A stretch of DNA of 64,000 nt from Balanoglossus misakiensis (Eukaryota > Animalia > Hemichordata). The notes beneath the pieces were generated by a model, which searched no databases, was not told the DNA's origin, and saw only the letters and a program-made list of their open reading frames with translations. Below are positions 5,361-60,822 of the stretch, in pieces; the first letter of the stretch is position 1, and each line of letters starts with the position of its first letter. The stretch is from the NCBI GenBank assembly GCA_040954595.2, contig CM082596.2, positions 6,212,791 to 6,276,790 on the forward strand, given 5' to 3'. Position numbers and translations under genes: made by a program.

Positions 5361-6453
5361 ATGGATACCGAATTCGATCTCCGCGCAGGCGACCTGAGCA
5401 CCCTTCCCATGGTGCTTTTCAGGACGACGTCCAAGAAGATCGTCCAACTGGACCTCAGCGTCAACCGCCTCACCACGCTGCCATGGCAACTGTCCGACTT
5501 CACCCGGCTCCGCACCATCCTTCTGCGCTGCAACGAATTCCGAGAAATTCCACCGGTGCTGTTCAAAATGGCGGATCTGACTCACCTGGACGTCAGCAAC
5601 AACCGCCTGACTTCTGTCCAGGATTTCATAGCCTGTCTGAAAAACTTACAAGTGCTCAACTTGAGTTTCAATAAAATAGGCGACTTGCCGTCGAACTTTG
5701 GCGGCAGTTTCGCCAGGATGAAGACGCTGGACCTCAGCAACAACGAGCTGAGCGAGATCCCGGAAGACCTGTGCGAGATCAAAACTTTGGAAGTTTTCAA
5801 CATCGGTAACAATAACATCACGAAGCTTCCCGAGGACCTCGCGAAATTGGCCAATCTGAGAGTTCTTGGAATTGAAGGGAATGTGCTCATGGACTTCCCC
5901 GAATGCGTCTGCAGGCTGTCAAATCTCACAGAACTGAAAGCAAGCAATAACAGTTTCCAGTCCATCCCTGATCACTTCGGGAAGAACTTGTCGCGCCTGG
6001 AGGAGTTGTTGCTGAGCGACAACAACCTGAAGACTCTCCCGGACAGTATCTGCGATCTTGTGAATCTGACGACGCTGGACTTGCGAAATAACAAACTTCG
6101 GAGGCTACCGGCGAATTTCGGAAACCTGGAAAACCTGGGGAACGTCGAGGACAGTCATTTCAGCGTGGAACACAACCCTCTGGAAGACCCGCCCCTGGAG
6201 ATCTGCCTGCGCGGCATCGACGTCATCCGCGAGTACCAATCAGGCAGCGGCTTCATGGCGCTGCGCAAGAAGGTGGCGGAGAGGCAAAAACTGAAGAGGT
6301 CCGAAGTGACGTCAAGTACCTTGTCGCTGGCGTCCAACGCGTCGACCGTGTGCGACAAAGAGTACAGCATGGAGCGAAGGCTGCGCGGGATTGCAATTCT
6401 CATCGATAACTTGGGAGTTTACAACACTGTCACTGGAAACGAGTCTGACTCCG
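5361..6453 (+). CDS. LRR-caspase coding exon 1 (LRR array, linker, start of caspase p20)
   Basis: ATG in GCCATGG context; GC-rich coding composition; ends at GTAAGA donor, phase 1. Confidence 0.9.
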
Positions 6454-7186
6454 GTAAGACAATCAACAGGTGGTTGCCATCATGATTCAGCCGGACCATT
6501 TTCCGCGCAGCTGCCCGAAATTTTTTGCTTCAAACTTGCTTTTCTGTGCATTCTCTTTTTCTTCCGCTCTTATCAATTTTTTTAATAATATTATTTACTT
6601 ATTTCTCTTTACAGAAAAGCTGTTTCAAGTGTTCACTAAGCTTGGATTCGTAGTTCGCCTGTACACAGACAGAACCTCGGAGGAAATCAGCCACATAATG
6701 GAAGTGGTTGGCATGGAGGACCACTCCCAATTCGACAGCATGCTGGCGTGCTTCATCTCTCACGGCTCCCCGGACATGATCTTCGGCTACGACTCCCTCC
6801 CCGTGCCCTTCCTGGACCTGGTGAAGCCGGTGACGGCCCGGCGGTGCCCGTCGCTCGCCGGGAAGCCCAAGATATTCCTGTCGCACCTCTGCCTGGAGGA
6901 GCAGAGCATCGACGACATCATCGACATGACCCCGGAAGTCCAGCTCCTCCCGAAGTCGAAGAACTGGGAGGACTTCATCTTCTGTTTCAACATCTTCTAC
7001 CAGCTGGGGTCGCTGCAGAGGACCGTGTACATGGAAAAGCTGGTTTCCTTCTTACAAGAGCATCCTCCGGACAAGGACTTGAAGCAGACCTTGCGTGACG
7101 TCATCGATTCGGCGGCCGAAGAGACGACGTCACGACTCGTCTTTGCCCCGTTTTCGACACTGAAGAAGAAAATCATATTGAAGTAA
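5361..7186 (+). CDS. LRR-caspase fusion protein: ~11 LRRs plus a divergent caspase-8-like peptidase C14 domain, 554 aa, join(5361..6453,6615..7186)
   Basis: ORF 5361-6485 has repeated LxxLxLxxNxLxxLP units and an NPLEDPPLEICLRGIDVIREY cap. The donor TCCG|GTAAGA (6453/6454) and acceptor TTTCTCTTTACAG|AA (6614/6615) form a phase-1 intron joining it in frame to ORF 6470-7186. The spliced C-terminal part reads YSMERRLRGIAILIDN..GNESDSEKLFQVFTKLGFVV..DHSQFD..ISHG..CPSLAGKPKIFLSHLC..DFIF..STLKKKIIL, i.e. caspase p20+p10 motifs in order. Confidence 0.9.
6615..7186 (+). CDS. LRR-caspase coding exon 2 (caspase-like catalytic domain)
   Basis: Pyrimidine-rich acceptor; SHG at 6758-6766; candidate catalytic Cys codon TGC at 6890-6892; TAA stop at 7184-7186. 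Confidence 0.9.
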
Positions 7187-9629
7187 AAATCAAGAGTTTG
7201 TATCGGAGCTAGTGGAATGGGAAACAGATAATCAAGCGTTGGTAAACTTAAATTATCTCTCCAGTACCAGCCAAACTGACAATCAACACTGACGGGTCGT
7301 ACGATGCTGTATACATAATACATGTATGATGCACGACTGTGGGATTTTAAACATAAAGCCTTGAAAATTAATTAAATCGTTTACAAGTTATTTTAGTGCA
7401 GAGAGTGTGATTTTAATGAGGGGTAAATCACGTAGAGACGAGATTAACAACTCTTTACTAAAATATCTGATGGAATATATGGTTCTTAACAAGAAATTTA
7501 CTTAATGAATAATTAATTTGTGCGGATTAAATTAAAGTAATGAAAGTCAGATGCAATTGATTAATACGAGAGAATATTCGTAGTGAGTCCAGTTTTTTGG
7601 ATACATGTAATTTGATCATGTATTTCATAATGCAATCATTTGAGATTTGTAAATGATTACAAGTAAGCGAGTGTATGCATAACTTGCCAAGGAAAGCAAC
7701 TGTTTCTCCCAGTCACTGACAGTGAACGAACGTGGTGGCTGAAAAATAATAAAACTGACAGCTGTCAATTGTCAAATAACAATTTCATGTATGATATTTA
7801 TTATTATACGCAAGTGGGACATGTCAAGTTTCGTATAACTTGTGTTAATGTTGAAGAATGTAGACATATTACAAACAACTGACATTTCAAAACCATTGAT
7901 AGAGGGCGCTAAGTGATTATCATCAACGTGAGTTATAGTGCGCATGTCTGTACGAGCACCACATTTTCAACATCGTAAAATGTTTACATTTTTGTTCGTT
8001 CGTTGACAGTCAATTTTTAGTTTTTTTTTTCGATAAATGTGTCTGTGGTTCCACTATAACCGCGCTATTTTATCAGTTGGATAAATTAATTTGAGTATGT
8101 TTCAAAAGCCGTACCAACCGCGTTGGAATTGGAACGGTCTGTTGCCAGCTGGATTTTAGGACCAAGCCAGGAACATGGAAGATGGATGCGTGTGTGTCCG
8201 AGTCCTAGGTGTAGTTGTAGTTAGACTAGACGAGTTTACTGCGATATTCAAGACTAGGGAAGCAAGGTTAGTAGGTTAGACTCTGCGAGTCATTAACCGA
8301 CGCTTGCGAGCATCTTTTTTGTGCGAACCGGGAGTGTGGACGACTTGAACAGCTGACAGGTGTTCGCGTATGACCTACACTGTATATGTTGTGATTGCGT
8401 AATGTAGGTGGGTACCTGGGGCATGAGATGTTGGACCATCACCAGAAACCGACCGTATTTGCGTGTTATTGTGTCTATTCTATCATTTTTAAAGGTTCTT
8501 ATTTAGTTTTTTATAAACTCGTTTGAAATTTTGATTATTTTAAAAGTTGTCAACGTGTCGTCAAATACGGGATACGAAATTTGTCAGGCAACAAACAGCG
8601 CATGCTTTACATAGAAGTGAACGACTCGCGAATTTTTAGTGTGTAATGTTTGTTCATTTTACACCGTTTTCAGTTTTTACAACGTACGCCTGATCACGTC
8701 GCACAAAATTGAGATGAAGTGTTGTGAAGTGATGCAGATCAACATTTATTCTATCATGTACATTGCTTGCACGTGAAAGACATCACATTTGGTAAAAGAA
8801 AACGGATTCGCAATCACATATGCGGTTGATAATATGAGCATGATAAACAAAATAAATTTCAGAAGTGTGTCTGAGGGCGCCATGTTACCATCATCCCCAT
8901 CCTTCAAAGATAATTATGCTAAATACAACTAATATTCTGAGTTTTAGATACATAATACATTACTGTAAGTACTCAATACTCTAAAATAGGTTTTCGATAT
9001 TAAATTAACTCATGCAACTTGGTCTTGACCATAATACATAATACCCAAAGAAAAAACATTAGAAAACGGTCCTACCGATAATTATCAACTTTCTACATAA
9101 TCACTAGCTAACCAAAAATGGTGGGAATGTAAGCTGAAAACTCCCATTGAAAGTTCAGCAAGAAACAAACTTTCTATTTACAAAATATCTATGTCTCTGA
9201 CAGCATATGATATGCAAGTCCTAAATCTGTTACACATTCGGAGCTGACAAAATAAAGAAAATGTCCATATGAGTCCGGGCCCTGCAGCTTAGAGTCAAAA
9301 TATCTGACACTTCTGGAGTCCAATATCCATTTTAGTGTGCCACTTGAGTTAGTTTTGAAAACCATCACAATAGTAAATATAACGAATATCCATTATTATT
9401 AATCCAATAGACAATGTCTTCAGGCATGGTAACCTCTCGTCTTTTGTCCAAAGCCACGAACAAGTTGAGAAAAAAAACGCCACTGGAAATCCCTTCGACA
9501 GTCTTGCTTGGTGCTGAAGATGTCTCGCAGGTATGTGATTTTCATTTCTCTGTGTACCACCATGACAGCTTCGCATTTTCTGAGCATCACAGAGGGTTGA
9601 CCCAGTCACGAGAACACACAGTTTCAACA

Positions 9630-18394: not shown

Positions 18395-19159
18395 ATGACG
18401 ATGGTATTACTTGAATTGAACTTTGAAATTGAACATAAAAACAAATTCTCTGGATTGTTTTTGCTGTCGCTGGCGGCGTGCTGCGCATATCCCGATTGGC
18501 CGCACATGGACTTATTTTTCCCGTCTCTCTCTGCAAATTATCCGCGACAGCAAGTATATTCTCACACGTACAATTCCCACTTCTTGTCGCCTTCCATGCT
18601 TCGCGTCACCGAAGTGTACAACCGAGAACGCTCTGGCGACTGGAGTAGGTAATGACTCCGTGGAAGAAAGACCACGATCAAAAGTCGATTGAACGCTTTA
18701 TCGACAACGCCGAAAAAATCGATGAGATAAACAAAAAAGCCGACAGCGCCAAAGAAGAAAACTGTTACTTAAGTTATAGATACTGCAAGTTCCCACTATG
18801 AACTGGGAATTGATTATCAATTACAGAGAAAAGGCTGATCGATTTTTTTGTATTATACTACTAATCCGCCGAAATCTAATTTACTTGGGTAAACTAGTAC
18901 TCTCCACGTCCATGGTTAGCTTGGTAGAGGTCGTTTCTCCCATATCATACTAGATCCCGAAGCATTTTTCATTAAAGGCTCGTCAAAATGATTTTTTTGT
19001 TCGATTCTACAGGTGGAAGGTTATATTAAAAGGCCGTACTGGATATTTGCGTGAACTTCATTCCTATTTTGAACTTGAAGTGACGCGGGAGCATGCTTGC
19101 GTTTCGGTACGTATTGTCTTGATTTGAAGGGGGAAAAGATGATGATGATGATGATGATC

Positions 19160-19231
<72 letters not shown>

Positions 19232-19446
19232 AACGAAAATTAAAAGGCAGCCCCTATGTTAACTGATTAGTCAAGTAAATAGCTTTTCAGAAACTCAATG
19301 AATAGCACATATGGGTGTGGCCCAATGCATAACATAATGCATCTCTACCATATTCGATAATTTTCCAGGTGATGGACGTATCTACGGGACGTACCAAGGA
19401 AAACAGACGAAACGTTTTGTATACAATTACCATGGACAACCACTAG
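18395..19446 (+). CDS. Tentative small, possibly secreted protein or pseudogene, join(18395..18648,19013..19106,19369..19446), 141 aa
   Basis: Hydrophobic stretch GLFLLSLAACCA|YPDWP resembles a signal peptide. Donor AG|GTAATG, acceptor TTCTACAG, donor TCG|GTACGT and acceptor TTTTCCAG chain in phase (2,0). No homology recognised. Confidence 0.3.
19138..19230. repeat. (GAT)n microsatellite
   Basis: Read directly; one interruption (GATCGAT). Confidence 0.95.

Positions 19447-21263: not shown

Positions 21264-60822
<39,559 letters not shown>

Follow-up and report, generated by a model that had tools for sequence, protein, structure and literature searches.

An acorn-worm gene joining leucine-rich repeats to a caspase domain stripped of its aspartate-pocket residues: a candidate pseudo-caspase

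When leucine-rich repeats (LRRs) stand where the death-fold prodomain of a caspase would be, is the product a sensor and protease in one chain, or something else? The question is raised by a gene of the acorn worm Balanoglossus misakiensis, lying in a window of 64,000 nucleotides (the whole stretch of DNA analysed here; all positions count from its first letter). An earlier note had read the locus as an LRR sensor fused directly to a caspase-8-like domain, a candidate immune receptor-protease without known precedent as an animal architecture.

Gene structure, orthology and constraint

The note had joined two open reading frames through a canonical 161-bp phase-1 intron, and this holds. Translation of the spliced frames gives an open coding sequence of 1665 nt, exons 1 and 2 joined with no intervening stop, for a protein of 554 residues. 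The RefSeq protein XP_070570976.1 of Ptychodera flava (612 residues) aligns across the full 554 residues at 82% identity, and the alignment is gap-free at the junction. A real and conserved two-exon gene is confirmed by gene model and orthology, with the following parts.

5361..6453, forward strand: coding exon 1, which holds codons 1-364 and one further nucleotide and encodes the LRR array, the linker and the beginning of the caspase domain
5439..6239, forward strand: LRR array, 10 canonical repeats at residues 27-246 and a C-terminal cap to residue 293
6240..6359, forward strand: linker, residues 294-333; the modelled P. flava orthologue has a basic helix here and then a low-confidence stretch rich in Ser and Thr
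6360..6453, forward strand: first caspase strand and loop L1, with Val357 (6429-6431) in the Arg179 column
6454..6614, forward strand: GT-AG intron of 161 bp, phase 1, placed by splice-site sequence and the P. flava model
6615..7186, forward strand: coding exon 2 (remaining p20, 26-residue inter-subunit linker, p10, dimer strand and TAA)
7748..7753, forward strand: candidate polyadenylation signal AATAAA, placed by motif; ATTAAA also occurs at 7371 and 7526

The donor reads CCG/GTAAGA at 6454 and the acceptor TTACAG/, after a pyrimidine tract, at 6614. Among 18 frame-keeping GT-AG pairs nearby, the junction 6453/6615 scores highest against the P. flava model. Exons 1 and 2 have GC contents of 0.53 and 0.55 and GC3 values of 0.73 and 0.82; the GC content of the intron is 0.37. 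The ATG at 5361 lies in a GCCATGG context, with an in-frame stop 6 nt upstream and no AG between that stop and the ATG; the first AG, at 5387, falls within the conserved start MDTEFDLRAG. This effectively excludes a death fold encoded in a coding exon further upstream. We rejected a missing exon of this kind, encoding a DED, CARD or NACHT domain, because it would remove conserved N-terminal residues.

The orthologue shares both the junction and the degenerate caspase motifs described below. A search with residues 255-364 returned one match among 61 candidates, the P. flava model, whose cluster contains XP_070570976.1; when exon 2 was compared with longer proteins, there were 12 matches among 283 candidates, without the orthologue, which sits under a 299-residue cluster representative. 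XP_070570976.1 differs in having 60 extra N-terminal residues of low model confidence. Identity begins at Met1 of the B. misakiensis protein, and no credible match for the extension was found within the 64-kb window. Its automatic name, "MFHAS1 homolog", reflects the LRRs only, since Roc and COR are absent by Pfam; we rejected membership of the MFHAS1/ROCO group because a caspase domain, not Roc-COR, follows the LRRs.

Between the two species, identity is 86-89% in the caspase domain versus 79% in the LRRs (110 of 124 residues in p20, 62 of 73 in p10 and 232 of 293 in the LRRs). A second version of the locus, either an allele or a close copy, is also present on contigs from a single DNA sample, which may be the source of the window itself. 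Variant classes were taken from the 40 of 119 differences listed, which correspond to the difference counts of two long exon-1 contigs; one at 6158, a compensated one-base shift that is probably one further replacement, was omitted. Among the differences listed, codons 1-323 hold 20 silent and 3 replacement codons (pN/pS 0.045) and codons 324-554 hold 13 silent and 5 replacement codons (pN/pS 0.11, p 1e-5). None of the replacement variants listed for the caspase part falls at any of the five key residues (His, Cys, Arg179, Gln283 and Arg341 columns). These differences show that purifying selection acts on the LRR and caspase parts alike.

A decaying pseudogene, or unrelated frames joined on paper, is extremely improbable as an account of this locus. 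A broken relative does exist, in that P. flava XP_070570938.1 is out of frame after residue 282. Against decay stand the gap-free junction, the identity across 554 residues and the purifying selection in both parts, and on these grounds of orthology and selection we rejected it. Against a paper join stands the position of the intron, which lies within the caspase domain and not at the border between LRRs and caspase, so that neither exon alone yields a whole domain. XP_070570938.1 itself is otherwise near-identical to XP_070570976.1 and has a late start; it may be a duplicate that has been broken, or an artefact of assembly or annotation.

The repeat array and the aspartate pocket

Pfam detects both of the families expected, LRR_8 in exon 1 (E 1e-36) and Peptidase_C14 in exon 2 (E 2e-19), and finds no CARD, DED, Death or NACHT family in either exon at E<=0.1. 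The absence of these domains had been claimed and stands; taken with the exclusion of an upstream exon, it leaves the LRRs where a death-fold prodomain would be, in one polypeptide. No NB-ARC domain was found by Pfam, so the protein does not count as an NLR receptor. The count of about 11 LRRs is close to the 10 canonical repeats plus C-terminal cap counted here, and the description of the linker as basic and Ser/Thr-rich agrees with its composition (8 K/R, 4 D/E and 11 S/T in 41 residues). In the full-length model (pTM 0.58), the mutual placement of the LRR and caspase parts is not fixed. XP_070570976.1 gave no usable feature match in the ESM Atlas, with LRR proteins as its only structure neighbours, and exon 2 falls there in generic caspase clusters.

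By structure matching, the closest solved LRRs are Leptospira LIC11098, LRRD1, plant GSO1 and SHOC2, and the array appears similar to those of cytosolic type, LRRD1 and SHOC2 among them. Its concave positions are identical between the species at 37 of 50 sites versus 97 of 132 elsewhere. The label of immune sensor fares poorly on this evidence, as the LRRs are strongly constrained and their concave face has no excess of change. Within the limited power of two species and one haplotype pair, the constraint seems to suit a conserved partner more than a microbial ligand that changes fast.

The same observations suit a non-catalytic scaffold outside cell-death control, in which the LRRs would bind a conserved host protein, much as SHOC2 does, and the dead caspase domain would serve only as a dimerisation or docking module. 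The low pN/pS of the LRRs (0.045, from 20 silent and 3 replacement codons among the differences listed), the lack of concave-face diversification and the presence of LRRD1 and SHOC2 among the close solved structures all point this way. Sensors of conserved ligands may likewise be under purifying selection, however. The nearest relative of the protein is moreover an intact LRR-caspase, and known pseudo-caspases act on caspases (PMC13545259; PMC11121540, in the portions available). We regard the scaffold as unlikely.

The positions that bear on catalysis lie mainly in exon 2.

6761..6763, forward strand: His414, the catalytic His in an SHG motif, kept (alignment column)
6884..6898, forward strand: HLCLE in place of QACxG, with His455 for Gln283, Cys457 (6890-6892) kept and Glu459 for Gly287
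6923..6925, forward strand: Asp468, candidate inter-subunit cut site, in a D-x-x-D context in both species
7016..7018, forward strand: Gln499 in the Arg341 column of the caspase-domain alignment

The fold itself is a complete caspase p20 plus p10, as the earlier note had stated. Beyond the Pfam match, the model of the orthologue's caspase domain (pLDDT 88, pTM 0.87) matches caspase-7, -9, -8, -3 and c-FLIPL, tied at Z 26-27 with an rmsd of about 2 Å; the c-FLIPL match, 3h13, has Z 26.2 and rmsd 1.9 over 195 aligned residues. "Caspase-8-like" is apt only for the best PDB sequence match; in the trees, the protein lies outside the vertebrate caspase-8/10 clade. The tandem DED prodomain of the caspase-8/10 subfamily is also absent, by Pfam and with an upstream coding exon excluded.

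We aligned 200 caspase domains from 228 fetched proteins with a match, dropping 28 in which fewer than 170 profile positions were covered. Most of them have the catalytic residues (His237 in 197, Cys285 in 191) and the S1 residues (Arg179 in 186, Gln283 in 191, Arg341 in 185). The latter three residues form the pocket for a P1 aspartate, according to the available portions of PMC2064784. In the B. misakiensis protein and its P. flava orthologue, they are replaced by Val, His and Gln, respectively, with His and Cys kept, and the QACxG motif reads HLCLE in the first and HLCLD in the second. Overall, 24 of the 34 columns that are at least 85% conserved are kept; the other 10 are mostly substrate-groove loop positions, one of them being an alignment gap. 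The protein is likely a pseudo-caspase, because all three aspartate-pocket residues are lost with the fold, His and Cys kept, and the term receptor-protease is not supported for this copy. Two points speak against this assignment. Both His and Cys are retained, unlike in cFLIP-L and in the Cys-less brittle-star proteins described below, and Arg500 adjoins the Arg341 column, one residue past it, in both species; in the model, this Arg opens the following helix.

Intact and degenerate relatives

Similar unannotated models had been suspected in invertebrate genomes, and hemichordate and brittle-star LRR-caspases were indeed found. Five with an intact QACxx motif occur across three hemichordate genera.

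Ptychodera flava XP_070533318.1 and XP_070569985.1: His, Cys, Arg179, Gln283 and Arg341 kept
Glandiceps talaboti XP_077999233.1 and XP_077985432.1: His, Cys, Arg179, Gln283 and Arg341 kept
Saccoglossus kowalevskii XP_006816015.1: His, Cys, Arg179, Gln283 and Arg341 kept

Like the B. misakiensis protein, these combine LRRs with Peptidase_C14 and have no death-fold family by Pfam, and four of the five have an LRR C-terminal cap like its own, or part of one; they are merely 26-33% identical to it. An Asp at Cys +12 is present in three intact relatives, close to the Asp468 position (Cys +11), which the P. flava orthologue conserves. Their automatic names (caspase-7-like, scribble homolog, uncharacterized) are misleading. 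By their residues, these five would be better candidates than the present gene for an adaptor-free sensor-protease.

Of 2088 representatives, 150 were listed, and at least 4 have LRRs besides the caspase domain. A profile search scored 7986 candidates, and both Pfam families were present in 5 of the 120 listed among its 502 matches, three of the five being new. Pfam scans of 10 family members found LRRs and Peptidase_C14 in every one and a death-fold family in none. The 150 representatives and 120 profile matches listed include no amphioxus LRR-caspase, which is a limit of the search and does not indicate absence.

Careful trees were built from two sets of 25 and 28 chosen caspase domains. In the two taxon sets, the B. 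misakiensis protein and its orthologue group with XP_070533318.1 and a short caspase, P0072, at 98/97 and 96/99; direct sisterhood with XP_070533318.1, also the top-scoring intact domain (340 vs 262), has support of 87/54 and 83/77. The stem of this protein and its orthologue is about 2 changes per site long, and with this long stem branch the placement is uncertain. A FastTree of 200 domains leaves the protein unplaced, the LRR tree has support of 37/20, and although both careful trees put the protein outside the vertebrate caspase-8/10 clade, their deeper backbone is without resolution. The LRR-caspases as a whole do not form one clade in the free tree, yet the AU test does not reject a single origin (p-AU 0.196), in a set without an amphioxus member. 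Long branches weaken all of these placements.

Degenerate relatives occur in brittle stars: XP_072025769.1 of Amphiura filiformis and two further sequences, P0177 and P0284, carry LRRs and a caspase domain without the catalytic Cys. Like the B. misakiensis protein, they also lack Arg179 and Arg341; they keep Gln283 and lack the Cys, the reverse of what is seen here. In the free tree they fall apart from this protein, yet a common origin is not rejected by the AU test (p-AU 0.114). P0177 and P0284 are 71% alike to XP_072025769.1 and are complete on contigs of roughly 2.2 kb, so that these contigs may be transcripts.

As an alternative to a pseudo-caspase, the protein might be an active protease of altered, non-aspartate specificity, in which LRR-driven dimerisation activates the His414-Cys457 pair and the rebuilt groove accommodates a P1 residue that is neutral or hydrophobic, or else a single dedicated substrate. 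Along a stem of about 2 changes per site the S1 residues were replaced but His and Cys were not, and the rebuilt motifs are near-invariant in two species. Besides P0177 and P0284, seven domains in the 200-domain alignment lack the Cys, and this protein is none of them. There is also a precedent in para- and metacaspases, which shifted their P1 preference through replacement of the same three S1 residues (PMC2064784, in the portions available). The replacements described there are acidic and form a new pocket, however, whereas those here are Val, His and Gln. Gly287 has become Glu or Asp, the modelled domain of the orthologue has a helix directly after the catalytic Cys, and the intact relatives have an L3-L4 loop about 4 residues longer. 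Retention of His says little, because the Cys-less relatives also keep it. We consider this alternative unlikely.

The architecture is not new. Amphioxus gene models with a direct LRR-caspase link, named LRRs-caspase, were published in 2008 (Zhang et al., PMC2575513) and put forward as a shortcut by which pathogen recognition leads to apoptosis, so that the novelty suggested by the earlier note, and the idea behind it, are anticipated in the available portions of that paper. Compared by this published description, the amphioxus proteins have the same direct LRR-to-caspase join, but all members carry QACXG and were judged active, in contrast to HLCLE here; LRRs-caspase is in none of the 16 cDNA-checked rows of supplement 5 in the available portion of the source. 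We found no later test of the shortcut in the literature searched, which left most subscription journals outside its scope, and within the same scope no account of LRR-caspases from hemichordates or brittle stars, nor of any degenerate member. PMC2575513 was the only relevant paper found there for the term LRRs-caspase, and the available portions of PMC3196919, PMC8662601, PMC2858798, PMC7836458 and PMC8195603 do not mention the fusion. Architecture and shortcut are thus already in print; what is new is the hemichordate and brittle-star family and, alongside an intact relative, a conserved member whose aspartate pocket is, judging by its residues, dismantled.

A single-chain sensor-protease, in which a microbial ligand drives adaptor-free dimerisation, cleavage after Asp and cell death, is very improbable for this copy. 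It has the right architecture and the His-Cys pair, and the idea would suit the five S1-intact hemichordate relatives and the amphioxus models (PMC2575513, in the portions available). Here and in the orthologue, all three S1 residues are lost, and the LRRs have no sign of diversifying selection.

A possible regulator of an active relative

The reading we prefer, to which we give about an even chance, is that of a pseudo-caspase which, like cFLIP, forms a heterodimer with an active relative, here an LRR-caspase, and regulates it. An intact LRR-caspase gene would have duplicated in the hemichordate line, and the substrate groove of one copy would have been remodelled fast, along the long stem (about 2 changes per site), before coming under strong constraint. 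Through its LRRs this copy would be drawn to the cytosolic partner or platform that the intact copy also joins, and its last strand would pair with the caspase domain of the intact copy. Such a mixed dimer, with one working site, may damp or redirect signalling, and the intact partner may cut the linker at Asp468. The ligand-gated decoy offered by the earlier note as an alternative is closer to the evidence than its protease headline.

A mixed dimer of two P. flava caspase domains, that of the orthologue and that of XP_070533318.1, was predicted with a score of 0.56 versus 0.00 for the best of 3 controls, with 100% contact agreement between runs and a partner pLDDT of at least 79. Of 78 solved complexes, 5 reached a weak pass of this kind; of 180 mismatches, 4 passed, every one of them at this weak level. 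The caspase-8:c-FLIPL complex has been solved, so the prediction may reproduce known structures and indicates likeness at most. It lends weak support to a mixed dimer with XP_070533318.1, a candidate partner known from P. flava.

Known pseudo-caspases offer partial parallels. cFLIP-L lacks catalytic residues and pairs with caspase-8 (PMC13545259). As here, a predicted-inactive caspase fold stands beside an intact paralogue of the same architecture, and the fold match to cFLIP-L (Z 26.2) is tied with those to active caspases. The two differ in that cFLIP-L is without catalytic residues and is recruited by DEDs, whereas this protein has His, Cys and LRRs and no DED, and it groups with a different caspase than cFLIP-L does. 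The prodomain of caspase-12 is a CARD. Mouse caspase-12 has one S1 change compared with three in this protein, and it was called a pseudocaspase on Arg341>Lys alone; it has been suggested to modulate a paralogue, a role that is disputed (available portions of PMC11121540).

More broadly, hemichordates and echinoderms may possess an adaptor-free LRR-caspase death switch on which an LRR-pseudo-caspase brake evolved at least two times, or, more boldly, the acorn-worm copy may be a non-aspartate caspase. This is a tentative and rather doubtful proposal. If true, it would parallel caspase-8 and cFLIP with LRRs replacing death-effector domains, and if the retained His-Cys pair is active, the protein would be an animal caspase with a new P1 preference. 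The locus offers a constrained gene, an orthologue, five intact hemichordate relatives and degenerate brittle-star relatives. With these, it becomes testable whether LRRs can substitute for death folds in caspase activation, and whether cFLIP-type pseudo-caspase control has re-evolved on another scaffold.

Several smaller features accompany the gene. The same DNA sample holds a second divergent caspase-like gene, with loose ends matching the window at 6839-6871. This sequence reads like P0130 and P0077, which are LRR-free and caspase-like, with SRG for SHG and no catalytic Cys, and which appear to be a separate pseudo-caspase lineage. There is also a short match at 5996-6032 to another LRR-coding sequence from the sample. 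Elsewhere in the window, simple repeats at about 2300-2520 (tetranucleotide) and 19100-19260 (trinucleotide) give rise to spurious low-complexity frames. An exon-like frame with high GC3 lies at 55722-56168 on the forward strand, with a donor-like site at 56151. A further exon-like frame, at 22157-22275 on the forward strand with a GT donor at 22275, may resemble the N-terminus of PCTAIRE/PFTAIRE-type CDKs.
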